A DNA stretch of 33,826 bases, from positions 1 through 33,826 of the forward strand of contig RBNJ01000298.1 of assembly GCA_003990765.1 (NCBI GenBank). The letters are read 5' to 3'. The notes under the pieces are model-generated. The model was not told the DNA's origin. It worked only from the letters and a program-made list of their open reading frames with translations, and did not search any database. This DNA comes from Jimgerdemannia flammicorona (taxonomy: Eukaryota). A program made the position numbers and the translations under genes. This document shows, piece by piece, positions 1 through 31,247 of the stretch. Position 1 is the stretch's first letter, and each line of letters starts with the position of its first letter.

Positions 1-860
1 TCATCAAGAATTGAGCCTATCCCCTTCCACTACATCACAATGGATATCATTGGACCACTACCAGTAACACTATCAGGAAACTACTATATTATAGTTATTG
101 TAGACCTCTTCACCAAATGGATAGAGGCAGGAGCATTACAAGAAGCCAATGCCCTCTCTATAGCTGACTTCCTATACTGAGAAATCATCTGCCACTACAA
201 GACACCAAAGCAAATCACAACAGACCGTGGTACAGAATTTGTTAATGGATTCTATGAGATAATATATCAGAAATACAAGATCCAGCACATCAAGACCACT
301 GCATACCACTCTCAAGGAAATGGACAGATAGAGAGAACCAACAAGACTCTCAAGAACATCCTAGCAAAGATCTCAGAGACATATGAGAATTGGGATAACT
401 ATCTTTCAACTGCCCTCTCTGTTCTACAAGACATAGGGTCACAGAGTACACATTTTACCCCAAGAGAGCTGCTCTTTAGAGAAGAAGATTCTGATGGAAC
501 CTCAGCCATAATCTAGACCTAACTTGGAAACAGGTTGATACAGAAATCTGGGGACTATACCAAATCAGGAAGAAGGCTGAAGATTATATCACCAAGTCAC
601 AAGCGCTGACAAGAAAGAATGTGGAAAAGAATCACAAGGCCCTAGAACCCATCTGAATCGGAGAAAAGGTTCTACTGTATCGAAATATGGTAGAAGCCTC
701 ATGGTCACAAAAACTGGAGCCCAAATGGGAAGGACCCTTCTATGTGCAAGATATCAAGGGAACTACCTTCTGGCTTAGAAAAATCTCAGAGACCATACTG
801 TCTACCATGGTACATAGGAACAGACTCAAGAAATATCATGAACCTATACAAGAGAAGTAA
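1..860 (+). pseudogene. Gypsy pol C-terminus (integrase DDE core + GPY/F), disabled
   Basis: Integrase motifs as above. In-frame TGA at 178-180, frameshifts after ~420, terminal TAA at 858-860. No chromodomain seen. Confidence 0.9.
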
Positions 861-861: not shown

Positions 862-1434
862 ATGTGATGACCACCTACAAGGTTCTAGTCTGCAAATCAT
901 AACAGCATATCCCATGACCAGCAGGCTATCTGTCTGGACCATTCTCTAAGGGATATGACACTGGCAACTACTCATCTATGAGACTTTCGAAGTCAGAGAA
1001 GTTCAAACTATCAACTGATTGGTCAAGATCAGAATCAGGCCCTTGCTCTATATGAAGTGAGCAACCCTTCACCATCATGCCAAAATACAAAAGGAAGATA
1101 TCAGCCCATAAACACCAGTTTTCGACACCTTGCCAGAGGTTATGGGATCAGCAAATTTTTCAGGACTGGACTAATGAATAAGGATGCTCAGAAAGATCCT
1201 TATTCAGGAGGAAGATGTAATAGTGACCCCAGAATGATGACATCAACACAGGAGACAGCCTTTCCTTGCAAGCCACCAGATCAGAGCACAAGAAGATCAT
1301 ATGGCATATGAAATGAGCAATGATGACCAACTGTGAGTCATTGTGACCACAGCATAAGCATCCTGAAGAATATAAAAGAAGGATCAAGAAACCACAGTAG
1401 CAGCAACCAACAAGAACCACCAATCCCAAAATAG
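862..1434 (+). pseudogene. Putative accessory ORF A of the gypsy element (~190 codons, unknown function)
   Basis: ATG lies 1 nt after the pol stop. One frame runs to TAG 1432-1434 and includes track ORF 1057..1311. Internal stops are mostly TGA, as expected from CGA by C-to-T. Confidence 0.4.
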
Positions 1435-1457
1435 CTCAAAGACTTATCATAAACAAA

Positions 1458-2291
1458 ATGCCTGCTGTATGCCAAACCTCAAGGTTAAGGAATCACTAAG
1501 GTATCTTGGTTGAGGAAAGGATGTTCCAAGACATCAGAAGAGCCATGAGGACCTGCTCAAGAAGGACTCCTAGTGTCAACCTAGGTACTGCAGACTCTTA
1601 TCACTTCATTCTCTACTGCCATGAAATAGAAACAAGGATCACTATTACTACTGAATGCCTCCAAATATGGCAGAAGTACGAAATAGAAAACCTCCTCTGC
1701 CAAGAGTTCCCACAAACCAGCATCCAAGAGCTACAAGATGCCACTTCCATGAATATACACAAAACAAGGATAGCTAAGAAGATCCATCAGATCTTCAGGC
1801 ATACACCATGATCAATCCCCAACTTGGAGTATGTTAGAGTCTCAGACTTCAGAGACCTATCATCCTGCCATATCAATGCACTAGAAGCCAGGGTGGCTAC
1901 AGAAGCCTAGTCCACTATCACCCTCAATAGTGAAGAAGTAGAAGACTTCTGGCACCCTATCCTTCAGGACAACCCAGACCAATTCCTGCAAAGATTGATC
2001 TCAGTATTCCAAGGCCCAAGCATCCAGGTTAGACCTCCCCAAGACCCCACATTTGTTCCCTATTTTGTAGAAGAGAACCTCATAAACTGGAGAGCTCTAG
2101 ACCTTATTTCTGATTTCCCTGCCACAGCCGAATGTGATGACGTCATCGGCGATGACATCATCCCATATGACATATCTGAAGTACGCAAAGAATGTAAAAC
2201 ATGTGACCTGCATGACAAATTTGCAGATCTCATCTCCTTCAGTGATGATGATGATGATGAAGCCCCTATGATCCTGAACTTTCTGCTCTAA
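1458..2291 (+). pseudogene. Putative accessory ORF B of the gypsy element (~277 codons, acidic C-terminus)
   Basis: ATG at 1458 follows an A-rich context (aaacaaaATG). It is in frame with track ORFs 1506..1811 and 1995..2291, with three internal stops (1497, 1809, 1908). Shares a motif with the ORF at 22221-22712. Confidence 0.65.
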
Positions 2292-2802
2292 GTTCTTTAT
2301 TACACTGGATAATGCCAGCACTGGTATTCTCATGTAATACTGGATAATGCCAGCACTGGTATTCTCATATAACACTGAATAATGCCAGCACCAGTATTCT
2401 GAGGTGATGCGAAATTGTTCCAGCACTGGCATTTTGATATGATACTAAATAATGCTAGCATTCTGAACCTGTACAACCATCAATACCGACTCTGGAACTT
2501 AGTAGTTTTAGTTATTGGAATTTATATTTAGCTTTATATCTTAGCAACCATTGAATTATATTTTGTATAAATACCTCTCTTATTTCCTCTGAAATAAAGT
2601 CAGTTCCAGTTTCACTTACACACACTTTCTTGCAAACAATCTAAGAGATAACAAGACAGTTAAAGATAAGAAGTTTGAGGACTATAAGACCTTGGGAAGG
2701 AACTCCAATAAGAACTTGCTTATAATAACTTGAGTTAGTCTAAGAGATACACCTTGAAGAGAATCTGGTATATTTGAAGAACTCAGTGACCACTATATGA
2801 CA
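2133..2802 (+). repeat. Probable 3' LTR (left boundary uncertain, 2133 or ~2292)
   Basis: TGTGAT...ATGACA imperfect inverted ends, internal tandem repeats, TATA box at ~2566, aataaa at ~2593. No clear PPT and no partner LTR in the window. Confidence 0.4.
2302..2434. repeat. 35-bp tandem repeat, 3 copies plus a partial, each with an internal palindrome (AATGCCAG-CA-CTGGYATT)
   Basis: Units start at 2305, 2340 and 2375, with a partial copy at ~2420. Confidence 0.85.
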
Positions 2803-2809
2803 ATATATT

Positions 2810-3288
2810 TATTATTATTTAGGAATTCAGTAATAAGAATGATTTTTTTTACTGCATATTCTGCTTCTTTTCCTGTTAATCCTTGATTATATGCATCCAT
2901 ATATCTAAAAGATTTTCTAGCATATTTTTGAATAGTTGATAATTTAATACTATCTAAAGCTTGAGGAATAATTTCATTTAAACTATTCCAAGTATAATCA
3001 CAATGTTCTCTTGTAAATAATTTTGCAGCTCTCCAAAACATTTCAATATAATTAAGTTCACAATGAAATTTAGGATAAAAAATAATTTTATGACCAGCTG
3101 TAATAATAATTTCTTCAAGCATACATTTTTGATTAAGAAAATCAGGTTGTAATTCTAAAATTCTTTGTGCACAACAATTATTTCTTAATTTTTTTTTTCA
3201 TTTTTAATATATAGTTGACAAATTTTTAATAAATTATCTTTCCATAATCCTCTTTTTTGTAAAATTATTTTCATTCCTTTTGATTGAT

Positions 3289-3291
<3 letters not shown>
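2810..3291 (-). pseudogene. Tc1/IS630-like (DDE_3-type) transposase, C-terminal remnant
   Basis: QSKGMKIILQKRGLW...CCAQRILELQPDFLNQK..LEE....GHKIIFYPKFHCELNYIEMFW..AK..TRE.CDY...RKSFRYMDAY..GL..KEAEYAVKK. Broken on its 5' side by the LINE poly(A). Confidence 0.8.

Positions 3292-3368
<77 letters not shown>
3292..3368 (-). repeat. Poly(A) tail of the LINE (T77 on + strand)
   Basis: Homopolymer ~22 nt downstream of AATAAA (3391-3396 on - strand). Confidence 0.9.
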
Positions 3369-3394: not shown

Positions 3395-6300
3395 TTATGC
3401 CCATCTATCCCATATAAATACAGTGACTCTACCCCCCTAACCAATCCCCCTAGGGGGGTCCCCCTCCCCCTACCCCTTCTCAATGAAAGACCACTCTGTC
3501 TAACACCATCCCCACTCTCCCACCACTCTGCTCACAGATCCTTACTACCAAACTGCGACGCTGCCCCCCCTGAGGACCCCAACCCACCCACCATCCAGTC
3601 AGCAGATCCCCCAATAGCTCCTCCCACCTTAGTATCTTCTTCTGCTGCCCCATCTACCTCCTCTCCTCAAATACAAAAAGCCAATGTCACACTAGTCCTA
3701 CCCATACTGCTAATACTCACCCTACAGTAAGCCAACTATCACCCACCCCACCCACTAGCTGAGATCTCAAGTCCTCCCAGCAGCCCCCTACACCCGCCAG
3801 CCTTCGCTCCACACCCAGTCTATCCCCTATTTCTACCCAAAAGTCCCCCAAAACCTCACACTCTCCCAGCCAGTGTTCCAGCATCTACACCAGACCCCTA
3901 GCTTGCCCAATATTGTAACACTCCTCACACTCGAAATGGCCACCATCCACCAGATGCCTAGCATGGAAATTCAACATAATATTCCTCTGCAGTATCTGCC
4001 ACCATACCACCCAGAATTTGGGAGGAAGCCATCTTCACACCTCAGTACTCCATGACCAGACACCTGCCCAGTCCCACTTCTTGCCAATCCCTGCTGCCTG
4101 CTAGCTACTCAGCCAAAGATCCTGACCAAGACCCTGCTGACACTCCACTCTATCCCTGATATCAAACATAGTAAGTGGAGCACCCCCCAGGAGCAGTCTA
4201 TCCCAATGCTACATATTAGGCCCCCACATCACCTTCCCCTCATTGTCTTGCCAATGCAGGCCAATTTGGTGTGCTCTATCTACCACTCTCCACCAAAAGC
4301 CCTTGAATCACAGCCGCTGAATTCCATTAGCCCCACCAAAGAGAGTAGATCTCTGGAGGACCCTCAAGGGGAGGTTCTCATCTCCCACACCTTCCACAGC
4401 AGAGGCACCCAACCCCTGCCCTGCAGTTCAGCAGCTCTCTTTAACCACCAGGCTCGCAAGCAGTGCAGCCTCTTAGGGAAATCCACAAGGCCCAGATCTC
4501 CCCTGACCACTGGTGTTGCCAAAGTATTCCAACTGACCTGGGCCCTCCTTCCTGTCCAAATCCAATCCCTAGCCACCTTTGTCAGCCTCTTCACTACCTA
4601 TGCTGGAAATTCGAGGTGATAGGCTATGTACCATAGCTTGGGGAACCAGTATACATTCAGAATTGACACCTGCCCTGCCAGAGAGATATGGTGGCCTCTC
4701 CAACCTCGAAGGGCCTCTCCCCAAATGGTCACTCTGCTCTCCCACCATACTCATGGCAAGACAGAACCATATACAGAAAGGAAGATGCCCAGATACTACA
4801 CTACCTCACCAGTAGAGACAATTGTTCCAATGATGTCCCCACCTACTAGCCCATTCTCTAGCACCATTGTCTCACACTTATTCCAGTTGAGCTTTGCCCC
4901 AGAGTGAGCCTCATACCATTCCACTGTCTCCTTAAGTGCCTCTACATCCACCACAGACCCAAGTCCAACCACCATGTCATCAGCAAAGGTCCCCACCTTC
5001 CACACTATACCATATATAGAAAACCCTACCACCCTCTGACGAATCCTATCCATCAATGGCTCCAGTGAGAGGGCATAGAGAATAGGGGACAAAGGATCCC
5101 CCTGAGGAACTCCTCTTCCCAAGGAAAATGCCAGACCATGGTATCTATTACACATCAGTGCTGCCTGACTGCTCCCTAGCAGATTCAACATAGAGGCCTA
5201 AAATCTTGGGGGAACACTAATTTGATCCATCACTTTGGCCAGCCAAACCCACCATACCCAGTTATAGGCCTTCTTCTGGTCCAAAAAAACCAACCTTCCA
5301 TCCAGTCTACAGGCCCGGGTCCCTTCAATGACACCATGTACCCATACAGTCCCATCTCTTATAAGTCTGCCCCCAACAAAGCCCCGCTGCTCCTCCCCCA
5401 GCACCTGTTGGGCAACTTTCTGCAGCCTAGCAACAACCACCTTAATCATCATTTTCCTGTCCATACCTAGAAGCATGATCAGTCTCCAGTTCTTCCAGTC
5501 CTCTCTCCTCTCTTTATCTTTGAACAATAAGGCCACCAGCCTGAGGTCCAGCTCTCCAACCCACTCACCATTCTGAATAACATGGTCATAGAGGGCAGTC
5601 ATCTCACTCAAAACTCTGGAGACCTTCACTATCTTCTTCCAGAAGTTCCATGGCAATCCATCCTCCCCTGGTGCCATTCTAAGCTTAGTTGCTGCAAGGA
5701 CACTCTGGATCTCCTCTCCTTGCACCGATAAGATCAAGTCACCCAGTTCAGCTACTTGTGGCAGCCTCCACTCCCCTAGTGTATCTGCAATCATTACCTC
5801 ATCAGTACCCCCTTCTCCCTCACTCTACAAACCCTGCCATCTCTCCTTCAAAACCCCTAGGATTTGTTGTGTGCCATGCACCATGTCCCCATCAGCATCC
5901 AGGACCCCATTCTATTGATACCACACTCTCCTAATGTTGAGGAGTCTTGATAAGTACCTAGTAGGCTGCTCACCCTCCTCAAGCCCCTGCCACCATAGCC
6001 TAGCAGCCATATCTTGCATATGAGTCTCCTCCTCTTCTCTCAACACCTGTTGCAATTCCACTATCTCCAATTTTGCCCTTTCTATCCTCCAGTCCTCCAC
6101 CCCCTCAGAAGTGAGCAAATCTGCCCAATCCATTAGCAGTCTCCTCAGCCTATTGGAAGTACACCTCGTGCACACCCTCCTTCGCCTCCCAGTCTCTCTA
6201 CCAGCTCCTCTCCAATAGACCCTCACAGCCTCTTTCAATCTTATCCAATGGACATCCACAGATAAACCCTCATGCCTCCAGACAACAACCTTTGCCTGAA

Positions 6301-7096
6301 TGTCCTCCACTCATGAATCCTATAACCCCTTCTCAGCCAGCAGGGAGGAGTTAAGGCACCAATGTCTGGGTCCATCTCCACTCCCCCCAAACTGCCCCTG
6401 TCCCAATAGTCCCCAGTAATCAGACCATGGGCACCACTCCACCTCCAATGACTTCCAAACATCTGAACCCCAACACTCCACCATCAGGATCCAGTCAATT
6501 CTTGTATCTAAGCCATTCACCCAATGTGTATAGACCCTGGTGTCACCCCACCACATTCGGCCCATATCTCCTAAGGAGCTCAACCTCTCTACCTCCTCCC
6601 ATACATCCAGTCCTCCACTTCTCCCCCCTGCACTCCTCCCTCCATCAGTCCTGTCCAGATGCTGATCCCGAACTATATTAAAGTCCCCCCTGAGAACATC
6701 AACCCCTTCCTCCAAGAGAATACCCTCCTCCAGCAGCTCCTCAATCCATGCAGTCCTCTCACCTCTAACTGTAGGGCAGTAGCAAGAGCCAACTCTCACT
6801 GACTCCCACCCTGGCTGCTACCAATCACTCCAGACCAAGTGATCACCCTAGCTCCTTACTCCCTCCAAGTCTCCTCTACCCTTCCTCACCAGAATCGCTA
6901 CTTTTCCAAACCAAGCAGTCACCCCACCCCATTCCTTAGTCCACTCTACCCAATTATCCTCATTCTCATACCGAACATCCTGTAGTAAAAAGAGATCAGC
7001 CTCCAATCCCTTGAGCTAAGTAAAAATGTTCTTACACCATCCAGAACTCCTCAACCCATTCACATTTAAAGAGAAAATGTTAGTTGTACTATTCAT
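3395..7096 (-). pseudogene. LINE ORF2: AP endonuclease + reverse transcriptase + C-terminal CCHC finger (~1233 codons, internal stops)
   Basis: MNSTTNIFSLNVNGLR, GDFN, TRID (APE). APGEDGLP, NWRxIxLL, GVPQGDPLSPILY, FADD, YLG (RT). CEEC...EHWLGEC (zinc finger). Track ORFs 6320, 5912, 5198, 4796 and 4364 share one frame with ATG 7096 and TAA 3395. Confidence 0.92.
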
Positions 7097-7151
7097 AGGA
7101 AATAATATTAAATAGCAATCCCATTCTCTACAAGTCCATATTCTGCTCCTC

Positions 7152-9161
7152 CTACACCAAGTCCAAGTTATGTTCAGCAGCTAGTTCCCTTTCCCCAGCT
7201 TCCTGTGCCTCCAACTCTTCCAGAAGTTCCACCATCACCCTATCTTCTTTCTCCTCAAAGTCCTCACAATACTCCATACAGGCCTCTCTCCAGAGCTGCA
7301 GACCATGATGCTCAGCCCAACAGTAAGCTGCCTGCTCACCCGCAACCACTGCCAGCTCCACCTTCCTCACCTCATCGACCTCATAACCCTCCTCCTCTAG
7401 GAAGATTGCCAGAATCTCTGCCCTCAGCACCTCTACCATGCCATCTCTATGCAGAATCCGCTCCCAATACTCCTCAGGCATTGCCCACAGGTCCACTTCT
7501 CCCAATATATCAGCCACGAGGTTATCCATCACCTTGCTCATCCACAGCAAGTTTCCCACCTCCTTCTCTCCTGGAGTCCCTGGCCATCCTGCATTCAACA
7601 TCATAGTGTCTGTACTGACACTGGCGGCCTCATCCCACTCTTCCTCAGAGACATCCACTAGCTCATCCTTACCCGCCACCACCACCTGGCCCCCTTTCAT
7701 CACATCAGGGACCCCAAAGCACACTCACTGGGCCCCCTGCATCAGCACATCCTCTGTTGTCCTTCTCTTCACAACCAGGTCCCTCCTGATAAGAGGAGGG
7801 GGGGTGGTATCTAATTCCTACTCCCAGACCTCAAAAGTGCCATCAGTATAGGAGTCCTTGCTCAGCACCTTCCCAGCTCCTTTCTTGCCTACCTCCACCT
7901 CCCCTACTCCTTTACTAGCCCAGACACTGGCTTTGATGCCCCCAGACACCTCAGCTCCAACTGCCTTCTTCTTTGCCTTTACTGTCATACTCACCAGTAG
8001 CTCCCTCTGTCTTTTACACCCCTGTGCCTGCTCCCACTGCCTCTTGTCTATGCAGATATGCTTTCCCTCTACAACCTCCAGATTTGTCATCTCCTCAAAG
8101 AGCTTCCAGGCCTTCGCCCTCTATTCCACTGCACCACTCAACTCCTCTAGTGCTTCTAACAAGTCCTCCTCCTCCTCCTCACTTCCCTTTACCCTCGACA
8201 CCCTACAGATGACAGCCCCCCACATTAATACTGATGGCCAGTTACTCGCCTTTCCCATGGCCTCTCTCCCTGCCAGCCTAATTCTGACATCCACATTGCC
8301 TGTCCTAGTTGCCATCCCCTCCCACACCCAGAATCTGATATCCACCACATTGCTATACTCAGCCACCACCTCCTCTACCCTCCTCCTAGTCTCAACCTTC
8401 ATTACCATAGGAACCCCTTTGACTAGCAGCTATACTACCCTGAGGTCCCACCTAAGGCACTGCATCATAGGGACCACCACTTCACCAACTACCACTCTAG
8501 TCTTCATTACCTCATCCAGTGGGCCCGCCTCTTCAAAGCCAACCTCTACTCCCTCCAGCCCCTTCAGGAACTTCACTGAGGCTGTCCCAGCCACCTGCTG
8601 CGAGATAAGCTCCAGGACCATCCTCACTGTCACCGCCAAGCCCCGGAAGTACAAGGTAGCCGCAAACTCCGAGACCGACTTCTTGAGTAATGGTGCTACC
8701 ACCAGCCCCATCACACCATTGGCCAGGTCTCCCTTCCTCTTTGGGCCCATCTGCCCAGCCCCCACACCAACAGTCACATCTGGATTTTTTTCCAGATTTC
8801 CTGTCATGCTACCATCAGCAGTCCCACTATTACCCCCAGTAGCTACTCCACTATCTCCACCACCCACTGATAAAGGCCCAGCTCCCCCATCATTCCCAGC
8901 CCTCTGCTTCCTCTTCCCACCTGCCTGCCTACCATGGGCTCCCATTGACCATCCTCCAGCCTGCAGCATATCTGCAAAACTCCTTCCTTACTGCCCTCCA
9001 GCCCCCCCACCAGTGCCTCCTCTACTGCCAGAGCTGCCCTGCCCACTTGAGCCACCAAAAGGCCCCATCTTCAGTCCATACCCTCTCCCAATATGTTGCC
9101 AGTTGAAGGCCCCAGGTCTACCTGACCTAGTACACATGTTGGCTTGCTTGCTGGTTGACAT
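7152..9161 (-). pseudogene. LINE ORF1 (~669 codons; Gly-rich N-terminus, acidic C-terminus; internal stops)
   Basis: Track ORFs 8988, 8430, 8121, 7818 and 7152 are in one frame from ATG 9161 (MSTSKQ). It lies directly upstream of ORF2. Confidence 0.8.
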
Positions 9162-9239
9162 TGCCTTAATATCTTTCTCCAATAAACGATGTGAAAGTGT
9201 GTTGTAAAAGTGTATGTAATGTGAATTGTAGTGGAGAAA

Positions 9240-10790
9240 GATGGCCATGTAGTATTGGCTCCTGTACTCACAGTTTCATCCCACTTCTCCTCTGTCACAT
9301 CCACCAGCTCATCCTCACCAACTGCCACCATCTGTCCTCCTTTTGCCAGATCCAGAACTCCAAAATACATCCACTGGGCTCCATATATCAGTACATTCTC
9401 TACTGTCTGGCTCCTTGTAGCAGGACCATGCCTGACAAGAGGGGGGGTGCCATTGAAGTCCTGTTCCCAGACTTCAAATGTACCATCTGCATAAGGGTTG
9501 CTGTGTGGTGGCTTCTCTGCCCCATCCTGACCCTCCTTGACCTCCCCTCTCTCCTCACTGGCCCAGACACTCACCTTAGTGCTCTCTGACTTCTCAATAC
9601 TTCCTGCCTTCCTCTTCTCTCCTTCTTCCATACTCACCAACAACTCCCTCTGCCTCTTGTACCCCTGAGCCCCTCCCACTGCCTCTTATCAGTGCAGATA
9701 TGTTTTCCATCCATGATCTCCAAGTACATCGAATCCACATACACCTGCCAGACCTTAGCCCTCCACTCAACCACTCCACTCCTCTCTTTCAGAGCCTCTA
9801 GCAGATTCTCCTCCTCCTCTTCACTCCTCTTCACCCTTGACACCTTACAGATAAAAACCCCCCACAGCATGACTGAAGGCCAGTCACTTGCCTTCCCAGT
9901 ATCTGAAATCCAATATTCACCACATCTCCATACTCAGCCATCACCTCCTCAACCCTCCTCCTAGTCTCCACAGTCATCACTGTTAGCACTCCCTTCACTA
10001 GTAGCTGAACCACTCTGGGGTTCTACCTCAAGCACCACACCATAGACATCACCACCTCTCCTATAGCCACTCTAATCTTCAACACCTCCTCCAGCAGACC
10101 TGCCTTCTCAAAACCCACCTCTACTCCCTCCAATCCCTTCAGGAACTTCACTGAGACAGCCCCCACCACCTGCTTTAAGATAATCCCCAGGACCATCCTT
10201 GCTGTCACTGCTAGGCCTTGGAAGCACAAAGTTACTGTGAACTCCAAGATTGACTTCTTGAGTAATGGTACTATCACTAGTCCTATCACACCATCCACCA
10301 GGTCCCCCTTCCTCTTTGGGCCCATCTGCCCAGCCCATACATCAATAGTCACATCTGGATTTTTTTCCAGATTCTCAGTCATGTCTCTATCAGCAGTCCC
10401 ACCACTACTCTCAGTAGCTACTTCACTAGCCCTATCTCCTACTGGCTGAGGTCCATACCTCCAGCTTCTCCAACCTTCTGCTTCTCCTTCCCATCTGCCT
10501 GCCCACTCTGAGTTCTCACTGGCTAACCTCCAGCCCATAGCATGTCTGCAAAGCTCCCCTCCTTCTGCCCCCTGGCCCTACCACTAGTGCTGCTTCTACT
10601 GCCTGAGCTGCCCTGCCCACTTGGACCACCAAAAGACCCCATCCTAAGCCCATACCCTCATCTGACATATTGCTAGTCAAAGGCCCCAGGTTTACCTGAC
10701 CTAGTATGTGCATCTACTTGCTTACTAGTTGCTATTGCCTTAGTACCTTTCTCTAATAAACAACTTAAAAGCATATTGTAAAAGTATAGC
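9240..10790 (-). mobile_element. Second, diverged copy of the same LINE's 5' UTR/ORF1, truncated at its 3' end
   Basis: Colinear with ~7600-9215. For example NLEKNPDVT....GQMGPKRKGDL and SVKFLKGLEGVEVGFE occur in both copies, and both 5' ends read ...aataaac...ttgtaaaagt on the + strand. Confidence 0.9.
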
Positions 10791-10869
10791 CTTATAGTTA
10801 GCAGTCCTCAATTTTGACAATTTCTAAATATTTCAAAAGATTTGAAATTGAAGACCTAATATAGTATAG

Positions 10870-11450
10870 CATTTCAACAATGTCAAAATATTTCAACACT
10901 TTTGAAATAACTCATAACTTAGTCACCCATCTCATAGCTAGCAAACTTATATAAATAATTCAGTATCTTAGAGTAAATAAACCTTAAATTAAAATAGTTC
11001 AAAATAAAGAGAAAGCAAAGGAACTAGTAAGTCTGCAGACAGATATACATCAAACTCACTCATCTATATCCTGAGGACTCTGTAGAGTCAAAAAAAATCA
11101 AGTTTTCAAGATATAAAAATTCAAAGTTAAGTATCTGCTATGTTATAATATATATATTTCTTAAAATTAATATATACTAGATTTGTCAAAATTGGCAATT
11201 CAACTATATATTGATTGATTTTATCAAGCTATCAGAATCTCATTCAGATAAAAATCTTGCTAGTGCCTTTGTGAACTATATTTTGAGATTTTGATATATA
11301 GATAAAGATATATAGAAAATAAGTCTTTCAAAAAGATAATATTTTAAAAAGATTAAGTATTTAAAAAAGATTAGATTTTTGAAAAAGATTGAGTTTTCAA
11401 AAAAGGGCAGGTTTTTAAAAAGGTTGGGTTTTTGAAAAAGGTTAAGTTTT

Positions 11451-11516
<66 letters not shown>

Positions 11517-13090
11517 TTGAGTTTTTAAAAAAGATCAGATTCTCAAAAAAGATTAAGTTATTAAAAAAGGGTATCTTATATTCAAATTAATGATTTTTTA
11601 CTCTAGATATTAGTTATAATAACAGATAATATATTTAACAATACTATATTTTTTCAAATAATTGAGATAGAGTTCAATTATACTGGTCTTAACTATCAGT
11701 CAATATAATATATATACTGTCTGGCTTATATTATTAATTTAGCTATTCAGAACTTTTTAGTCTATTTAAAGCTGATGATGATGTAAGTTAAGATAGTTCT
11801 AAAGAAATAATTTCAAAGCTCTAATTAATTATTATCAAGATCTGATTATCACTATAATATCAAGAGAAATTTATTATATAATATAAAGCTTTTAGAGTCT
11901 ACAATCTAAAAGAACTTATTTTGAATTTTGAAACTTAATGAAATTCAATATATTTGATAGTTGAATAAGCCTTGAATAATTAGAGATAAGTTGATTATAT
12001 TATATTTAATTTTTTTTCAGTTTTTTCTTCAAATAATCTAATAAATTAATCATTAATCTCAATGATTATAGCTAATAAAGATTTGCAAAAATATGCTATA
12101 GAAGACTATACTTGATAGATACTAAAAGATATTATTGATATACTAAAGTACTTTAAACAAGCAATAGATCTTATAGCTTGATATAAATATCTAAAGATTT
12201 ATTTTGCTATTCTTATTTATAACTTTCTAATAGATATATTGAAGAATAATGATTAAGAAATTTGAATATATACAAAAGAGCTAAATATTATTTATCTGAT
12301 ACTAACTGTAGCTATTACTAAATTAAAAATATATTATTCAATAAAAAATACTATAATTTATTATATTAGTACTAATAAGTAAATATTTTGATATTAGAGA
12401 TAGCATAAATCTATTTTGAAATTTACTTAGTATTAGAAACAGTATAAATCTATTTCAAAATTTACTTATTAGTAATTACTAATATATTTTAAATTTATTT
12501 TATTTTATTTTTTAATAAAAACCAGTACTTAATTCTAGATTTAAGCTAAAATATTATTTATCATACAATTGAGAAGACATTTAGATTAAAGAGGCTAAAG
12601 ACAAACTTTGTATAGTTTATATTTAAAACTATACTCCTCTATCTAGATTAATTAATTGAATAAGTTCTGAAGATCATAAAGAAGTAGGAGATAATATTAA
12701 TACTATATTATATAAATATATATTCAACAAAAAATAAAAACTAATGACAAATCCTGAATAGGAGATAAATACTTATTTAAAAAGTGAAACTATTAAATTT
12801 AAAGCAGGAGTTAATGAATTATCTTAGTAGTAAGTAGGTTAGAAATTTATATTTGAATTAAGTCAATTTTGAGTTTCTTTAATTAATTTAAATAATTGAA
12901 AATATTAGGGCCATAGTAGAGATTTTCCAAATTTAGCAAAAATAGCATATAACTACTTAACTATCACAGTAACAAGTACTCTAATTGAGAGAGTTTTTTC
13001 AAGTAGTAAAGATCTTATAGTAACTAAAAGAGGTATTTTAGACTCTGAAATAATTTATAAATATATGTATTTAAAGATATAATAATTATC
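10870..13090 (+). mobile_element. hAT-family DNA transposase remnant with introns, heavily mutated
   Basis: LIDFIKLSESHSDKNLA, ILVIITDNIFNN, YCLAYIINLAIQ (CxxH motif), ET**NS (TRWNS), and the hATC domain FPNLAKIAYNYLTITVTSTLIERVFSSSKDLI. Intron-like segments at ~11130-11180 and ~11308-11607. TIRs not identified. Confidence 0.85.
11322..11575. repeat. ~20-21-bp tandem repeat (GTTTTYAAAAAGRTTRA-like) with an embedded A62 run, inside a putative hAT intron
   Basis: About ten TTTT-AAAAAG units seen directly. The A run spans 11452-11513. Confidence 0.8.
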
Positions 13091-13429
13091 TAGTATTTCA
13101 ATAATAATAGCTAATTTCAAATCTTAAAATATAGTTAAATTTTGAAATACTAAATAAATATAGTACTCAGGTATAAGTATAACTTAGAACTTATAGATAT
13201 ATAATATCTGAATATAATTTCTGAATATATATCTAATTGTTATATTTAAATATGATTTTTATCATTTCTAGCCCCAATGAGATAAGTGAGATATTATTAT
13301 ATCTATCTAGGAAAACTAAGAATAGATGACAAGTAGTATGAATGATATAATATATAGAATTTTAAATATATTTAAAGCTTAAGGACATATATTAGTTACT
13401 TAGTTATTATATCTAAAATGCTTATACTT

Positions 13430-13890
13430 ATAAGCTTACAAACCTGCAAGTATATAAGCAATAAGCACAAGTCTATAAGCTTACAATTATGTGAGTAATA
13501 GATATAAGCTGAGAGCTTTGGATATTATAACAAGTATAAGTCTGCAAGCCTGTAATTCTATAAGTAATAAGTATAAGCCAAGAGCTTTAAATATTGTAAT
13601 ATATATAAGCTTATAATTCTATAAGTAATAAGTATAAGTCAAGAGCTTCAAATATTACAATAAGTATAAGTCCATAAGTCTATAATTTCATAAATAATAA
13701 GTATATATAAGTCAAGAGCTTTAAATATTATAATAAGTACAAGCCTATAAGCTTGCAATCCTGTAAGTAATAAGTATAAACTAAGAGCTTCAAATATTAC
13801 AATAAGTATAAGTCTGTAAGTATAAGTCTACAAACCTATAAGTATTAAACATAAGCTAAAAACTTCTGATATTGTAATAAGTATAGGTAA
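13430..13890. repeat. ~70-bp degenerate tandem repeat, ~6 copies
   Basis: Recurrent core AGTAATAAGTATAAGYYRAGAGCTTYRRATATTRYAA. Copies differ almost only by C/T and G/A. Confidence 0.85.
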
Positions 13891-14186
13891 AATATATATA
13901 AATAAGCTAGCTTTAATAGTAAAATAAAATAAAAAACAAAAAATGACCTCACCTTATAAAAAACTTCAATTCTATATTGATCATCTTTCTGAAGCCTTTG
14001 AGAATATAAATAATGCTATTAACAAGATTGTCATCTAGTTAAATAATGAAAAATCTAAGACTGATGATAAATACAAGAAGAAGAAGAAGAAGAAGAAAAG
14101 AAGTAATTAAGTAATTTATCTTAAGAACTGCCTCTGAAGCCACCCCTCAGGCTATCTTTAAAGTCTCTACCTCTGAGGTCTCTGAA

Positions 14187-14330
14187 GCTACTGCCTAAGC
14201 TTAAGCTATCACCTAAGTCTAAACTACTATCTAAGTCTAAGCTACTACTCTAGTCCAAGCTACTACCTAAGTCTAAGCTACTGCTCAAGCCTAAGTTACT
14301 ACTCAAGTCCAAACTACTACTCAAGTTCAA
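14187..14330 (+). repeat. 18-bp tandem repeat x8 (ATTQVQ-like coding repeat)
   Basis: GCTACTRCYYAAGYCYAA units in exact 18-bp phase. Confidence 0.9.
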
Positions 14331-14339
14331 ACTGAGAAG

Positions 14340-17300
14340 ATCTCTGAGGTTCTCATGATCAGCAGTTCTGGTTTTTTTTAGCAAACATTATCTCAAATAG
14401 CTTTTATTTGGTAGAGGCAGTAGGGATATTCCAAATTTTCTATAGGATCTCAGATAAGCAGAGGTTCCAGTTAGTAGGATTGACTTAGGTAAGTTCTTTC
14501 TTGATGATATGATTCATTTTTTCTATCATATAATTGGTCTGAGGGTAGTATGATATAGTCTATTTGAGATGGATCTTATAAATTCAGATATAACTTATAA
14601 TTATGTTATTGATAAATTGGGTACCTCAGTCAGAGATAAGTTCTCCTAGAGATCCATATCTAAGTATAAGTCTATGGAGGAGATCAATGATGGTCAAGAT
14701 ATCTGTAATTTCTATTGGAAAGACTTCAGGCTACTTGGTCAGATATTCTACAAATACTAGGATATACTTATTTCTTCTTAATATAACTGGTAGAGATCCA
14801 ATTATATCTACTCTCTATCTTTAGAAGATATTGTCTGATAGTATGATTGATTGTAATAGTACTTGATAATTCTTCTTTTCTTAATACTTCTGGCAGATGT
14901 TACATTTCTTGAGTATGTCTCAAACTTGTATTCTGAGATCAAGCTAATGTTGATATATTATTCATAGCTTTTCTTCTATATTTACCTATCCTTGGTGAGC
15001 TTTTTGATATTCTTTTCAGATGAGATCTTCTTGTACTTAGATAGTCAGAGGAGCTTCCTTTAGAGTATAGTTCCTTGATATATCCTTCTCCTGGTTTATT
15101 GAGATTGGTGGAAAAATATATCAACATTATTGTAAGATTTTCTTACTTTATAGATAATAGTACTTTGTAATCCTAAAGGATAAGAATCTAGCAGACCAGG
15201 ATTCTAGTGAGTTTCTTATAGTTGAATAGTCATTTAAGGGTAGCATAGTTAGTTATCAGGGTGAATTTTTTTCCAATAAGATAATGCTTGAATAAAGTGA
15301 CAGTCTATATAACTGTAAGAAATTCCAATTTAGTACTACTATAGTTGATCTGCTGCTGATTGATAGCTCAGCTTATATAAGCTATTATATGATATTATTA
15401 ATCAGATCTTTCTTAGACTAGAACTGCTCCAAGACCATCTTTGGAAGCATCTGTATATAAGATAAATGACTTCTATAGATTAGGCCAGACAAGGATTGGT
15501 GCTGTAGTCATATAGTGCTTGAGTTTCTTGAAGATCTTCTTCTATGATTCTGTTCATTTATAAGGTACTTCTTTCTTGAGAAGGATTTGAATTAGAGTAA
15601 TAATTTGGGCAAAGTTCTTGATAAACCTTCTTTAGTAGAATACTAATATTAGAAATAATAGTATTTCCTTTGGAGTCTTAGGTACTGGCTAGTTGTTGAT
15701 CTTCTTGATTTTCTTTAGGTCTGTATAGATCTCTTCTTTCAAAACTATGAATCTAAAGAATTCAAGTTTCTATTTCCCAAAGTAGCATTTCTTGGCATTG
15801 AGCCTCAGGTGGTTCTTATGGGTGAGCTTGAAGAATTCTTCTAGATAGTGTAGGTATTCCTCAAAATTTGCATATATATAATTAGATAATGGTAGATCAA
15901 TAGGCTATAGACTGAATTCATCATTCTCTAGAAGATAGAGAGTATATTGCAAAGTCCAAAGGACATTCAAGAGTACTCAAATAGTTTTTCTAAGACAAGA
16001 AGACTATTTTCTAAATGTCTTTGAGATCTATAGAGATCTTATGGAATCCTGTAAAAAGGTCCATACTACTGAAGTATCTGGTATCTTGTAACTGATCCAA
16101 GAGATCATCAATTTTGGGCAAAGGATAGGCATCCTTCTCATTGACTGAATTGAGTTTCCTGTAGTCTATACAGAGTCTCTATCTTTCTTTCTTTGGTATA
16201 ATAAGTATAGAGCTGGCCCAAGGGCTGGTGAAGAGTCAGATGACTCCATTGTCTAAGAGTTCTTGAATATGTTCCTTTTCAAATATCTTGAAGTGATGGG
16301 ATATTCTATAGAGTTTCTGCCAGATAGGTATTGCATTTTCTGTATTTATTCTGTAGTAATATGATGGATTGTATGGTAGGTTATTATAATTAGTAGTAAA
16401 GATATCTTGGTATTTATTGAGAAGTTTTACTAGTTGTTGCTGTTGTTGAGATATTAATTCTTCTCCAATGTTAGTAGAAGGCTTCACTATCTTCTGGATC
16501 ACAGAGGGGTCTTTCTTTTCTTCTGGGACCTTTTGCTATTTCCTGATAGATTTAGCTTATAGACTTCTCTGTAGATTTAGTTGAGAAAGAGTACTTGGAG
16601 ATCTCCTGCAAGAAGTTGGACTTGTATAATGAGGTCTTCTAGTTCTTGAGCAATTTAGTCAAAGTTAGTAGCAGAGCTGTCTATATAATCTGGTTGGTCT
16701 GGTAGGAAGTCTGTTAGTACTAGCTGGGAATTCTATACTATACTGACTTCCTATTGAGATTCTTCTGATACTGGGTAGTTGATAAGTCTTGAAGTAATTA
16801 CTTCTCTTCCTATCCAGATGCTGGTGATGACTGATTCTCTTATAGTAGCAGAGATTGGTATTGTATCAAATGTATCCAGTTTGACTGTGGGTTCTTATAA
16901 GCTGAAAAGTTATATTAATTTTGAAATCTTCTCAGTTGAGCCCCCAAATATAACATACCCAACTCAATGGAGATAAATTACAAGGTTGGGAGTTAGTATA
17001 GTTTGACTTGAGCTCCTAGTTACTTTATCAAAAAGTAACAAAATATTCTAAGATTCCTTGTTAGAGTTTAGTAGTATAATAGTCAAAGCTAGATATCTGT
17101 GAATAATTCTGATAATTTCTTTATTAAGATGGTTCTTAGATATGAGCAGTGATTTATATATATATGTCAGATAATCTTTATATAATATGAATGGATTCCT
17201 TATATAGAACAGTCTGATAATTTAGCAGTTGCTTTCTTAAGTAGTAGTAATCTCTTATATAGTATGATGGATTCTTTATATAATTTTTGTATAATGATTA

Positions 17301-18050
17301 TATTTTTAAAAGTATGTGATTTCTGTATGATGATCTTAGTATAATGATCTCTGTATAGCATAATAATCTCAGTAGTATTCCTGAATAAGCAGTGATAAAC
17401 TGGCAGCTAACTCAATTTGATAGATAACTTGGTTTGGCAGATAACTCAGATAACTCAGTAACTTGGTTGGCAGATAACTCAATAACTTGGATAACTTGAA
17501 TAACTCAAAAATAGTAAATGATGTAGATTCTTCTTAAATTAGCAGACTTCTGAAAAATAACTCAGATAGTATAAATTGTAGATTCTTGGCAAGTTATGTC
17601 AAAGACTGGTTTTATTTATATAGAGTTATATTATAGACTAACTCTACTGTGAAGTTACATCAGATAGACTGGCTTGTAGTAAGATTTCTTAAGATGAGCT
17701 CTCTGGGAATAGTAGACTTCTTGAATAATAACTCAGATTCTTCTCTTAGTAAAGTTATATTAAAGACTGGTTTCATTTGTATAGGGTTATATCATAGACT
17801 AGCTCTACTGCAAAGTTATATCAGATAGACTGACTTTATAGTAAGAGGGATTTTAGACTTATCTGGTAAGTAGACCAAAATATAACAGATTTCTCTTAAA
17901 AATGACAGTAAAGTTCTTTTTTAAACTTAAGTGGTAAATACTCTTGAACTTGTTCTTTGTATCAGAAAGTAGACCAGAGTGGGAAAAAGTAAGCTCACAA
18001 TCTTCTAATAGTAGCTTTAGAGTTTCTCTTAAAGTGTGATAGATAGACTT
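14340..18050 (-). mobile_element. Ty3/gypsy element, degenerate (RT-RNaseH-integrase at ~16500-14340; probable gag region upstream)
   Basis: - strand: SPWASSILIIPKKD, KDAYPLPKIDDLLDQL, FSSMDLFTGFH (RT); YTDASKDGLGAVL, KHYLIGKKFTLIT (RNase H); CNICQK, VDIIGSLP, ELISD*GTQF, SYYPQTN (integrase). The 5' boundary is approximate and no LTR was identified. Confidence 0.85.
17400..17846. repeat. 9-bp GATAACTYR repeats followed by an imperfect ~140-bp direct duplication (~17545-17686 and ~17714-17846)
   Basis: Both copies contain aaagactggttt...tagacta.ctctactg..aagtta.atcagatagactg. Confidence 0.75.
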
Positions 18051-21000
18051 ATCTTTTGCTTTTGAACTTTTTGAACTGAGGTTTATTTACTCTTATCTCT
18101 GAGGTATTTTATATAGTATGATAATACTTTAGAAACTGATGATATAAAAAGCCAGAAGACTGCTCAGACTTTATAAAAAGAAGTAGCCTAGCCAGAGAAG
18201 AGAAACTCCATATAGCTGGAGGAGTTATAGACCAGAGATTCAAAGACAAAATCAAAGTCCTACTATATAATACTGGATAAAAGGTCATCAAAATCATCTG
18301 TGGAAAATGAATTGCTCAAGCTATTATTGAAGTGATATATAATGATCTTAAAGTAGAAAAAATAAGTGAACTATTACTTTTCAATAGAGGAGAAAAAGTC
18401 TTTAGATCAACAGAAAAGCACACTGACAAGACCAAGGAGAAGACTAAGATATAGAAGAACATCTACATTAAAGAACCCCAAGACTGAGACCAGAAATGGT
18501 ACTAGTGTATTACTGATAGATATGTCCTCACAGAATGATACCATCATGAAATCAAGATATACTATTTCAAACATATAGGAGAATGTATTATATGTGTCCT
18601 CAAATCCAAAAAGTTCAAGCCAACTATCTCAGAATAATGAAATAAAGAGATTAAAAACATCAATGATGAAGATGAAGAAGTATAAGATTAGGAAGAAACT
18701 ACCCCAGAAATAATTGCTACCTAGCAAAAGACTAATATAGAATGTATCTACCTATAAGAAAAAATTGAAGGAAACACTATTGAAGTTTTGATTGATAGTA
18801 GAGTAAGCAAATACTATCTTGATCAAGAAACTGTCAATAAATTTCACCTCAAGATACAAGGAAACTTAGAAGAAAACATTGCTATCTTTGGTAATAGAAT
18901 AATATAGAAACTTTTCAAGATATATAAGAATGTATTACTATAACTTAGAAACTATACTATAAGATAAATCTTCTATACCACATATCTTCCAGTATATAAT
19001 TTTATTCTCAGAAAATCCTGGCTCACTCAGAAGAATCCTCACATTAATTGGTGAACCAATATGATCTCTCTAGGTGATATCAAGCTATAACCTGAGCAAA
19101 TCAAGAAGAAACCAAAGTCTAGATATGATATCATCTCTGCCATCTAAATGAAAAAGTTAATTTAAAAACCAGACCAGTATATCTATATATGTACAGTCAA
19201 AGAAACTCCAGAAGAAGATGATAAAAAACTTCCTGAGCTCCTAAAAGATGAAGATGATGAGAAAGATAATCTTTAAGAACTACTCAATAAATATAAAGAT
19301 GTCTTCCAAAAATCTCAAAAACTGTCATCAGCCCAAGCAGTAGAATATAGCATCAAAACCATTCCTGGTTGTGACTCTTCCTATTATAAAATCTACTAAT
19401 TAGCCCAACCTAAGTTAAAGACTCTCAAAGAATAACTAGTAGAATTAACAAGCAAAGGACTTATCTGTCCATTAAAATCACCATATAGTATACCAATTCT
19501 CTTTATTTATAAGAAGGATAGAAGTCTCTATATGTATATTAACTACCAAGTACTTAATAAAATCTTAGTCAAGAACTTATATATACTCTCAAGAATCAAT
19601 AAACTATTTGATCAAGTATATAAGGCCAAGACCTTCTCACTTATTGATCTTATATCTGGATATTATCAAATTTGTATCAAAGAAGAGGATATTTCTAAAA
19701 TAGTCTTTTGAATAAAATTTGGTCATTATGAATTCTGTGTAATACTATTTAGTCTCACCAATATACTAGCAACTTTCCAAATACTAATAAATGCCATTTT
19801 TCAAAAATACCTTAGAGTTTTTATTCTGATCTACCTGGATGATATCCTGATATATAGTATAAGTAATATTATTCACTGACAATACTTGCAAATGATTTTT
19901 GACATACTCTATAAATATAAGCTTTTAGCAAAAAAGAAAAAATATAATTTCTTTAAGAAGATAATTGAATACCTAGGATATATCTTTGAAAATGATATTG
20001 CTATTAACCCTAAGAAAACTCAAGCAATCTACAATTGGCCTATTCCTAAGACTCTCAAGTCCTTATGAGGATTCAATAGACTAGCAGAATATTATAGGAG
20101 ATTTATTCAAAGATTCTCTATGATTACCATCCTACTCACAAGTCTTATCAAGAAAGGAGCTAATATCAAAAAAGAATAGACAGAGATATATGTATATCAT
20201 AGCTATGATCCTGATCAGTTCTGATCCAACAGGACCATTTGTAGTCACTACTGATACTTCCAATATTGCTATTAGAGTAGTTTTGACTCAATATAAATAT
20301 TCTGTTACCTACCTGTCTTAGAAACTCAATGAGTATGAAATAAACTATATAATATAAGATAAGGAACTCCTTACTGTCATCTGATCCTTATAAGTATAGA
20401 GATACTTCCTTTTTGACAAAAAGTTCACCTTGTAGACTGATCATTAAGCTCTTTAATATATCTAGACACAGTCAATCCTCACAGAAAGACAAGCCCAATA
20501 GATGTAGATCCTTATACTTTTTAATATCAAAATCAAGCACATTTCTGGAATTAAGAATGAAGTAGCTGATATACTCTCCCAAAGTACTCAAAAAGAAGAC
20601 CTCACAATAATTAATAATATTATCACTAGTCTATTTGAAGAAGTTAAGAAAGAATATATTAAAGATATTAACATATAAGAAATTATCAAACAAATCCTCA
20701 AAGAAGGCAGCAATATCATAAAGAAAGTCTATAAAAATGTATCTGTTCAAAATAGATATATATATCTTAATAATATAAGAATCTGGGTCTCTGATATCTC
20801 TATTTACTTATGAATTCTGCAAGAACTCTATGATATACCTATAGTTAGTTATATGGGATTTGACAAGATATACCAGAATATTGCCTGAGACTTCTACTGG
20901 TCCAAAATCACATCAGACATTAAGAATTATATTATATCCTGTAATATCTGTCAAAGGTACAAGTCCAACAATTAGATACTGACTGGTACTCTACAACTAC

Positions 21001-22220
21001 TACCAATTCTCACCCAAAATTGGGACTATATTGATATGGACTTTATTGTCCAATTGTCAAAAACTAAGAAGGGAAGAGATGCAATTATTATCTTTATTAA
21101 TTATCTCAGTAAGTAGGCCTACTTTATTACAATAACTACTATAGCAACAATACCAGAAACAGTACAACTGTTTATTGATAATATATTCTATCTTTATGGA
21201 CTACTATTAGTAATTATCTCAGACTAAGATACAAAGCTTACAAATAACTTTTGGTAAGCACTCTTCAAGAACCTAAGAGTGCAACTAAAAATGTCTACAG
21301 TATACTATGTATCTATAAACAGATGGCCAAACAGAAAGAATCAATTAAACTCTAAAGCAGATACTTAGTATCTACTGTGGCTATAAGCAAAATGATTGAG
21401 ATGAAAAGCTGATCTTAGCCAAATTCACTTACAACAACAGCCCAAGTATAAGTACCAAGATGATATCATTCTACTTGAACAATAGACAATACCCATAAAC
21501 TCCTATAGTTGCTATTCAAACCACAGTATCAGTAGTACAAGAAATTACCAATATCATACAAAATAATATTCAGCAAGCATAAGATGCTCTCATAGAAGTA
21601 CAGAAGATATAAATAGTATATACTAATAAAAATAGAAGAGAAGTTATCTACAAAATAGGAGAACAAGTATTACTCAGCATCTGGTATCTGATCCTGAGTA
21701 ATACTGATTCAAAGAAGAAACTCAGACTATGCTACATTAGACTATTCAAGATCTTTGAGAAATATAGACCTGTCATATACAAGCTTGATCTCCTAGCAAT
21801 ACTAAGAAGAATCTATTCAGTATTTCATATATCTCAACTTTAGCTATATACTCCAAATATCTTCAAAGGAAAAACCATGTCACCTCTAGATCTAGTAATT
21901 ATTAATCAATAATAAGAATATGAAGTTGATCATATCTTAGATTATAAGGATCACTGATTTGAATGAGCTACTAAGCCCATCTGGTACTATCTTATAAAAT
22001 AGAAAAGATATCCTAGATATGATACAACCTGGGAAAAAGAAGATAATTTTTTCCAAATGCAAAAGAAACAATAACCCAATATAGAAATTAAGTATAATAG
22101 AAATTCCAATGAAATTTCCAAAAGATAGTTATATCTCTATTTCTGATTAATCTAGTGAAAAGAAGTATAAATATCCTAATATAAACCTGTATAGATAACT
22201 CACCCCCCTCTCCTCCCAAT

Positions 22221-22712
22221 ATGAGTACTCAGTAATGACACCAAGAATAAGTCAAGAATAGGATTAGTACTGTTATTCTTAGAGCAATCGAATACCAATA
22301 GAACTCTACTGAACCACTATCTATCAATATACAAATCTCTGAAGATCCAGATCCAAATAAAGCCCAATAATGTCTTGGAAGAATATAATATTTTCAGGTC
22401 TTCTAATACTAATAAGAACTTAAGAAGTATTATGAGATAGGACACCTTATCTATTATAAGCTACCCTTAGTACTGCCAAATAATAAGCTCATCTTTTTAT
22501 CAACTACTATATATGTATATATAGTTACCAAGAGACTCTATGTTCTTTTCTGCACTTAATCTCAAGTTCTTGACCATATTTATAAAGTATCTCCTGAGAA
22601 TATTGCCAACTTAAGTAATGAACAATAAAGCAAAATTATCTTTTAAGTAGTCTAGTATACTGCTTTTCAGTTTGAGGAATATCTAGAGTTTAGTACTAAG
22701 TCTAATAAGTAA
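22221..22712 (+). pseudogene. Putative accessory ORF of the chromovirus (164 codons, many stops, no net frameshift)
   Basis: ATG 22221 to TAA 22710-22712 in one frame, filling the gap between the chromodomain and the PPT. Motif shared with ORF 1458-2291. Confidence 0.55.
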
Positions 22713-22720
22713 GCTCAAGC

Positions 22721-23116: not shown

Positions 23117-23119
23117 ATA

Positions 23120-31135: not shown

Positions 31136-31247
<112 letters not shown>

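Follow-up and report, generated by a model that had tools for sequence, protein, structure and literature searches.

A decayed accessory gene in a Ty3/gypsy retrotransposon and its probable remnant in a second, chromoviral element

Contig RBNJ01000298.1 was analysed over its 33,826 nt on the forward strand (hereafter the window), which contains the 3′ part of one Ty3/gypsy long terminal repeat (LTR) retrotransposon at its beginning (element 1) and a decayed, AT-rich chromovirus at approximately 18.2–22.1 kb (element 2). The best explanation found is that an open reading frame (ORF) at 1458–2291 is a dead copy of an accessory gene (ORF3) in element 1, and that a decayed remnant of the part encoding the helical core of the protein persists in element 2; taken as a whole, this reading is considered probable, with appreciable room for doubt. 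The accessory gene would be lineage-specific, belonging to Ty3/gypsy LTR retrotransposons of a soil eukaryote that is probably a fungus. Its remnant in element 2 (22431–22670) would be far more decayed and would stop just short of a polypurine tract. As the remnant lies in a second gypsy lineage, the gene would either predate the split of the lineages or have moved between them. The analysis followed up an earlier note on this DNA, in which two different gypsy elements were proposed to carry a homologous, non-env accessory protein encoded downstream of pol.

The accessory ORF of element 1 and its relatives

With its stops read as X, the frame at 1458–2291 matched five proteins (P0001–P0005), with E values from 6e-127 to 1e-32 and identities of 59–85%. 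One of them, P0002, is an intact protein of 271 aa whose sequence, MPA... to ...LNFLL, spans the frame. When 1,835,955,588 cluster representatives were searched with a profile, five clusters were returned at E ≤ 1e-3 and nothing else; a further profile search added P0013–P0015. In total, 15 related proteins and one metagenome contig were found, which form four lineages with identities of 29–85%; the identity of the lineages to P0008 is 29–56%. A cluster look-up resolved the first nine proteins into 12 sequences on contigs of 720–4848 nt from JGI and ENA, annotated as 'hypothetical protein' or unnamed. The metagenome contig, L001, is 1535 nt long and contains an intact ORF of 291 codons; a first scan of metagenome contigs with an alignment of close members gave 250 pattern matches, none of which was confirmed as a locus. 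Metagenome matches to the family come from soil. The large Glomeromycotina family suggested in the earlier note finds no support, with 15 proteins retrieved in all; the database matches bear no taxon labels.

The intact relatives are 247–342 aa long, and all full-length members begin with MPA or MPP. Relatives from the profile search measure 138–342 aa, none being longer than 342 aa, so forms fused to pol are lacking. Between the window copy and L001, the proportions of non-synonymous and synonymous differences (pN and pS) are 0.41 and 0.71 over 266 codons; the synonymous divergence (dS) is saturated at 2.26, so the ratio of 0.26 is indicative only. Frames of 247–342 codons that are still open at such divergence imply that the gene is under constraint. 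As far as sequence conservation can tell, the family is a genuine conserved coding gene, separate from pol. No member scanned against Pfam gave a match (P0002, P0007, P0008, P0009 and the window frame were among them), and an Atlas feature search with the 126-aa open part of the frame yielded no usable match.

By its position and strand, the ORF is assigned to the additional ORFs (ORF3) of Ty3/gypsy elements: it lies inside an LTR retrotransposon, 3′ of the integrase and on the pol strand. The proposal of a non-env accessory gene downstream of pol in element 1 is thus sustained by the order of the rve match (22–309) and the ORF on the same strand. The lack of a Pfam family and of any link to known retroelement proteins would speak for a host origin, either as a fragment captured from a host gene or as a normal host gene next to the transposon. 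However, no longer or host-like relatives occur among the 1.84 billion representatives, the ORF is hypermutated like the surrounding repeat, a polypurine tract and an LTR start follow directly after the stop in L001, and many soil metagenome contigs span the ORF together with flanking element sequence; a host origin of this kind is very improbable.

The frame is not open in the window. Three internal stops interrupt it, at 1497–1499, 1809–1811 and 1908–1910, where relatives encode Q, W and Q, respectively. In the comparison with P0001, the closest relative, a C>T or G>A change in the window codon explains 32 of the 36 differences. On this pattern of substitutions, the window copy is a dead pseudogene that lost its function through hypermutation of the C>T/G>A type.

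The observed/expected ratio of CpG is 0.0–0.15 in element 1, in a C-rich repeat at 3400–10700 and in the AT-rich block up to 23100. It is 0.73 in the short AT-rich stretch at 23100–24300, and 1.02–1.05 in the gene-bearing part of the window (24500–33826). Repeat-induced point mutation (RIP) is indicated by a TpA/ApT ratio above approximately 0.89 and a (CpA+TpG)/(ApC+GpT) ratio below approximately 1.03. The stretch 22100–23100 lies on the RIP side of both thresholds, with values of 1.20 and 0.91, and 17400–22100 gave 1.04 and 1.15. Element 1, with 0.75 and 1.52, lies on the RIP side of neither, despite the preponderance of C>T and G>A changes in its ORF. Its CpA+TpG content is high, in contrast to classic RIP.

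A candidate remnant of the gene in element 2

The Chromo match of element 2 directly follows SH3_Tf2-1, in heavily decayed sequence (Table 1). For element 1, no Chromo match at E ≤ 1 was found in the three frames of 811–1457, where a decayed domain might escape detection; Pfam gave no match in this interval. The integrase cores of the two elements share 23% identity over 109 aa (E 1e-5), and the elements are therefore distant from one another.

All homology profiles of the accessory family were built without the window copy. HMMER takes each of the numerous stops for an X and applies a composition correction; codons were therefore scored directly, as the log-odds of each observed codon under the profile column against background, with C>T/G>A decay at a rate r. 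In the three frames of 22100–23100, the first profile scored 27.1 bits at r = 0 and 32.6 bits at r = 0.3. None of 3000 dinucleotide shuffles scored as high (maxima 25.1 and 28.8 bits), and the Gumbel p values are 2.7e-4 and 8.5e-6, respectively. Once lineage 4 was added to the profile, the scores were 28.9 and 34.7 bits, equalled by none of 500 shuffles. Modelling the decay adds 5–6 bits to the real match and leaves the shuffled controls unmoved, and the scoring at r = 0 is likewise above every shuffle. At r = 0.3, profiles of lineages 1, 3 and 4 alone gave 23.4, 28.7 and 22.6 bits, values reached by 1, 0 and 1 of 500 shuffles, respectively. All four single-lineage profiles place their best match in the same frame, with ends between 22619 and 22661. 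A first decay-aware scheme, which took the best ancestor for each codon, was rejected as too permissive: it drifted positively, and 5/300 and 16/300 shuffles reached the observed scores.

Across the six frames of the whole window, 22431–22670 is the top high-scoring segment pair once the ORF itself is set aside. The best natural decoys after it scored 22.8 bits, or 22.6 bits with decay, and the reversed-column profile reached at most 20.2–21.2 bits; the segment exceeds every natural or reversed-profile decoy by 6–12 bits. Along 79 gapless columns, it shares 12–17 identities with each full-length member, and in 30 columns its residue is found in one member or more. Reversal of C>T and G>A changes raises the identities to 26–31 on this extended diagonal, which agrees with the statement in the earlier note that such reversal adds identities. 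As the profile scores lie above all shuffles, homology is likely; the segment is, with good confidence, predicted to be related to the accessory family over approximately 80 codons of the helical core only. The idea of a shared accessory gene is therefore supported in part, for the helical core on the diagonal originally proposed; no signal extends to the N-terminal positions or the C-terminal half.

A number of results weigh against this homology. The two 31-residue strings on which the earlier note relied are real and lie in the frames given for them (IAKKIHQ... at 1770–1862 and VTKRLYV... at 22524–22616). They do align without gaps, with 5/31 identities and 15 positives; their BLOSUM62 score is 14, which is reached by 5 of the 33,232 ungapped 31-mer pairs between both frames (maximum 15). 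Similarity above chance is not borne out: when the residues of the second frame were shuffled 500 times, 60% of the shuffles equalled or beat this score, and the best ungapped 31-mers from the other frames and the opposite strand of the second region score 14–27. BLASTP between both whole frames found nothing, the best E value of 11 falling on other, unrelated segments. Since the 31-mer is at the level of chance, it would not by itself carry the finding. Nor is 22221–22712 an ORF, as it had been described; it contains 13 internal stops in 164 codons, a stop density above that of the pol parts.

Further unfavourable results come from the profile searches. HMMER with the 10-sequence profile placed its best non-self match in the six-frame window at 22419–22637, on the same diagonal, with −0.4 bits; the divergent-member profile gave 1.5 bits at 22431–22652 and an enlarged 11-sequence profile 1.2 bits at 22416–22637. 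The range overall is −0.8 to 1.5 bits, with non-significant independent E values (i-E) of 0.06–0.26 at Z = 6, and of 0.06–0.19 for the three profiles just named. When the 13-kb AT-rich part was shuffled 100 times, between 1 and 8 shuffles reached such scores (5/100 for −0.4 bits and 1/100 for 1.5 bits). The codon scoring is a scheme of this report's own, with r picked among four values, and the profile of lineage 2 alone (r = 0.3) was non-significant at 17.4 bits, with 76 of 500 shuffles as high. The N-terminal 65 profile positions show no signal in element 2 (389/500 shuffles as good), and neither does the C-terminal half, which includes the most conserved block (398/500). The absence of the latter would be accounted for if the gene of element 2 had ended at the polypurine tract, 14 codons past the match. 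A database search with the X-read 22221–23003 returned 86 candidates, none at E ≤ 10; without relatives of this stretch, a second profile is lacking.

If the gene belonged to element 1 only, the similarity at 22431–22670 would have arisen by chance in non-coding, AT-rich DNA near an LTR. This would fit the chance-level 31-mer, the BLASTP and HMMER values, the many internal stops and a most conserved block that is undetectable in element 2, and the one significant statistic is home-made. Against it stand the failure of every dinucleotide shuffle with the combined profiles to score as high, the margin over the next best non-self match, and a score that rose once a further lineage was added. Furthermore, the match shares its strand with pol, and comes after the chromodomain and before a polypurine tract with TGTAAT next to it. 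Chance similarity is thus judged unlikely, if still worth bearing in mind.

Alternatively, the remnant could be homologous, yet form the tail of another decayed ORF3-bearing element adjoining a truncated chromovirus. Element 2 lacks a detectable LTR pair or gag and is apparently 5′-truncated, and the AT-rich block holds other gypsy debris, such as that at 15232–16426 (−). However, the remnant is on the strand of the chromodomain and begins only approximately 160 nt after it, a single polypurine tract with TGTAAT follows, and no second pol remnant lies between chromodomain and remnant. A separate element at this position is accordingly the more improbable of these alternatives, well behind chance similarity.

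Placement of the gene relative to the 3′ LTR

In element 1, the polypurine tract AGGAGGAAGA and TGTAAT lie upstream of the ORF, whose ATG falls 242 nt inside the putative LTR; from this order, the ORF copy is probably inside the 3′ LTR. More precisely, it probably occupies the U3 part of a 1587-bp 3′ LTR that starts with TGTAATAGTG and ends with CACTATATGACA. The start resembles TGTCATATAGTG, the reverse complement of the LTR end. One X5 contig matches the window as far as 2803; from there it diverges into CT and TGGTGCCC..., which is similar to a primer-binding site. The placement inside the LTR draws on the polypurine tract with TGTAAT at 1206–1221 and the inverted-terminus end at 2802, which is motif evidence from one putative LTR. 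No LTR pair is visible within the window for either element, which counts against the overall reading, and the LTR borders consequently rest on motifs. The earlier note had placed both genes between pol and the 3′ LTR. By motif only, this holds for element 2; in element 1, the polypurine tract and TGTAAT precede the ORF. A narrowly worded phrase search of the literature for an ORF within a retrotransposon LTR found no paper.

The succession of a polypurine tract and TGTAAT is common to element 1, L001 and element 2. In L001, the ORF stop overlaps AAGGAGGGAGGA, after which come T and TGTAATAAG; element 2 is arranged in the same way. There, AAAGAAGAGAAGGA is one of eight purine runs of at least 12 nt on the plus strand of 11001–24300 and the sole one with TGTAAT after it; the putative LTR start is TGTAATGAATCA. 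No 5′ LTR of element 2 was found in the window by self-BLAST, transition-tolerant local alignment or a 21-mer search. The three putative LTR starts have only TGTAAT in common, the remaining DNA being alignable no better than shuffles. A look-alike of TGTATAAATA that MAFFT placed in both LTRs was rejected, as it is absent from the best local alignment, which is itself not above shuffles.

The arrangement in L001 and element 2 (ORF, polypurine tract, TGTAAT) lends weight to another reading of element 1, in which the ORF has the internal position that it has in L001. The 3′ LTR would then start at approximately 2298 with the TGTAAY units (approximately 505 bp), and AGGAGGAAGA with TGTAAT at 1206–1221 would either match by chance or represent an additional polypurine tract inside the element. 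The TGTAA[T/C]ACTGG units of the 35-bp tandem repeat start 7 nt past the ORF stop and resemble the reverse complement of the LTR end. On the other hand, there is no purine run of at least 9 nt from the ORF stop to 2694, and the loss of a polypurine tract could not be due to transitions; at the upstream site, a 10-nt purine run is joined by TGTAATA, which equals the start of the downstream units for 7 nt. An internal ORF in element 1 is a substantial possibility, albeit the less favoured one. The 35-bp repeat may hold the older LTR start, the repeat unit start and the start at 1216 having been compared by eye.

Soil metagenome contigs cover 1–2814, one of them bridging 1011–1392, and 2815–3350 is almost bare. 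The summed contig depth is approximately 2-fold higher from 1207 onwards (2.2, 1.7, 4.6 and 2.0 for X1, X2, X4 and X5, respectively); as the depth of metagenome contigs is not copy number, this rise was given no weight. Upstream of the ORF, the 8-mer TATAAAAG recurs 80 nt before the ATG of L001, and the window and L001 show conservation in the 25 nt preceding the ATG. The ORF may thus have its own promoter with a TATA box.

Table 1. Positions of features assigned to the two elements within the window
Feature	Position	Strand	Basis and remarks
Element 1
Integrase catalytic core	22–309	+	Pfam rve, E 8.3e-11, residues 8–103 of the frame-1 read-through; window starts inside pol
Integrase C-terminal SH3-like part	660–785	+	Same frame as the ORF; MLVIN_C E 0.025, SH3_Tf2-1 E 0.1, both below cut-off
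Polypurine tract AGGAGGAAGA	1206–1215	+	Purine-run scan; 10 nt, TGTAATAGTG directly after
Putative 3′ LTR, 1587 bp	1216–2802	+	TGTAATAGTG...CACTATATGACA; encloses the ORF; polypurine tract and TG start
TATAAAAG, possible promoter of the accessory ORF	1371–1378	+	87 nt upstream of ATG
Accessory ORF, pseudogene copy	1458–2291	+	277 codons and terminal stop; 59–85% identity to P0001–P0005
35-bp tandem repeat	2298–2472	+	Units begin TGTAA[T/C]ACTGG; 70-nt window, 4 copies, 35-nt spacing
Element 2
dUTPase	18179–18412	+	Pfam E 9.3e-8
RVT_1	19511–19987	+	Pfam E 3e-15
RNase H	20223–20513	+	Pfam E 2.7e-19
Integrase_H2C2	20811–20966	+	Pfam E 4.7e-12
Integrase SH3 domain (SH3_Tf2-1)	21661–21849	+	Pfam E 9.5e-10
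Chromodomain remnant, end of pol	21919–22059	+	Pfam Chromo E 0.015; 15.6 bits against a cut-off of 25.1
Frame of the earlier note	22221–22712	+	ATG 22221 to TAA 22710–22712, 164 codons; 8 nt before the polypurine tract
Segment likely homologous to the helical core	22431–22670	+	Profile positions 75–154
Polypurine tract AAAGAAGAGAAGGA	22721–22734	+	Then TGTAATGAATCA; putative LTR start 22735

Other features of the window were observed alongside these elements. Just past element 1, where unrelated sequence follows, a 134-codon open frame at 2796–3197 (−) has a weak match to the transposase family DDE_3 (E 0.051, below cut-off). The plus strand of 3400–10800 is C-rich, with a GC skew of −0.34 to −0.54, and metagenome contigs cover it as well; within it lies a 451-codon open frame at 7852–9204, and 7630–9214 and 9276–10788 form a 1.6-kb tandem duplication of 72% identity. 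Homopolymers comprise approximately 77 T (3292–3368), 62 A (11452–11513) and approximately 100 A (approximately 31137–31243). In element 2, dUTPase is located upstream of the chromoviral protease and reverse transcriptase, with no recognisable gag before it, for which reason the element looks 5′-truncated. A tandem repeat of approximately 161–170 bp at 17540–17913 (+) lies just upstream of its coding part, and a weak inverted match (56% identity) to its reverse transcriptase and RNase H at 15232–16426 (−) is suggestive of a further gypsy fragment in decay. At 26147–27739 (+) lies an ORF of 530 aa that is intact and acyl-CoA oxidase-like, with Atlas clusters that carry ACOX_C_alpha1 and ACOX; its nearest clusters are commonest in Ascomycota.

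Protein features, known systems and significance

The intact relatives share a layout of MPA/MPP start, helical core, strongly conserved WNPILQDNPDQFLQGL..F.GPPI block and disordered acidic tail. An AlphaFold2 model of P0002, computed from a 10-row alignment, has a mean predicted local distance difference test score (pLDDT) of 50.6, with helices over residues 18–150 and little order thereafter. The description of the shared part as small and helical is thus upheld as far as a helical core goes, in a model of low confidence. A VIA-align comparison with 48,161 chains found none at Z ≥ 5 and matched single long helices only, and provides no evidence of a new fold. In agreement with the earlier note, no signal peptide or transmembrane (TM) segment is apparent in five members (P0001, P0002, P0008, P0009 and the L001 ORF), whose Kyte–Doolittle maxima over 19 residues are 0.59–1.05. 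An env-like ORF3 was considered, and is ruled against by the lack of a TM-like stretch in these members and of a Pfam match.

Over the C-terminal 70 residues, the net charge is −8 in P0008 and −15 to −17 in the other four of the five members tested. Repeated hydrophobic motifs (DLISF.D, LNFLL) stand beside acidic and serine runs in this tail, and presumably resemble small ubiquitin-like modifier (SUMO)-interaction motifs or similar short linear motifs. It is proposed that the protein would be an element-encoded adaptor, whose helical core would bind the element's own RNA–protein particle or integrase, and whose acidic tail motifs would hook a host factor. Given the poor model and the empty fold and feature searches, this mechanism is conjecture, which tells against that part of the explanation.

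A more far-reaching version holds that the gene is ancient in chromoviral and non-chromoviral gypsy elements, that the LTR engulfed it in one lineage when the polypurine tract and the start of the LTR moved upstream, and that the protein acts as an adaptor between the element and a host pathway through its acidic tail motifs. In this combined form it is a doubtful proposition. If true, each LTR, including solo LTRs, would be a self-contained expression unit, with the TATAAAAG box, ORF3 and the LTR poly(A) signal.

Genes in comparable positions exist elsewhere. The sag gene of mouse mammary tumour virus (MMTV) is an ORF within the U3 of a retroviral LTR, and Sag is a type II membrane protein. 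Element 1 would resemble it in having a gene in the LTR, downstream of the polypurine tract, if the LTR start at 1216 is right; the present protein differs in having no TM segment, and there is no sequence or functional link between the two. Plant LTR retrotransposons contain additional ORFs (aORFs), which differ from lineage to lineage and are located after pol and before the 3′ LTR. These occur in other hosts, and no homology to them was found, the present family having no relatives outside its four lineages.

In bdelloid rotifers, ORF3 types are common to diverse retroelements (Rodriguez, Kenefick and Arkhipova 2017, PMC5408684). The rotifer ORF3s resemble the present family in being a non-env third ORF downstream of pol, with the same type found in unrelated lineages, and some ORF3-bearing lineages encode a dUTPase, as does element 2 (PMC5408684). 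As described there, however, they encode a GDSL esterase, a DEDDy exonuclease or an env-like protein, whereas the present family has no recognisable domain and belongs to another host group (PMC5408684). Among fungi, brtn is an additional gene of Boty-like (BcGypsy1) elements in Botrytis cinerea (Zhao et al. 2011, as cited in PMC8365987). It is likewise an extra gene besides gag and pol in a fungal Ty3/gypsy element; brtn is antisense according to the cited title, whereas the present ORF is on the pol strand, a comparison made by description only (PMC8365987). Extra ORFs of LTR retrotransposons are thus known, and the present family is one without named relatives, confined to four lineages in the databases searched.

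Extra genes of LTR retrotransposons are the raw material that gave retroviruses env and their regulatory genes; few fungal examples are known. An ORF3 kept across gypsy lineages whose integrase cores are as divergent as those of elements 1 and 2 would point to a function that serves the element, such as trafficking, targeting or escape from silencing. A differing position of the ORF relative to the polypurine tract would provide a concrete case of LTRs swallowing internal genes. The ORF3 family also offers an annotation marker for unlabelled 'hypothetical proteins' in soil metagenomes.

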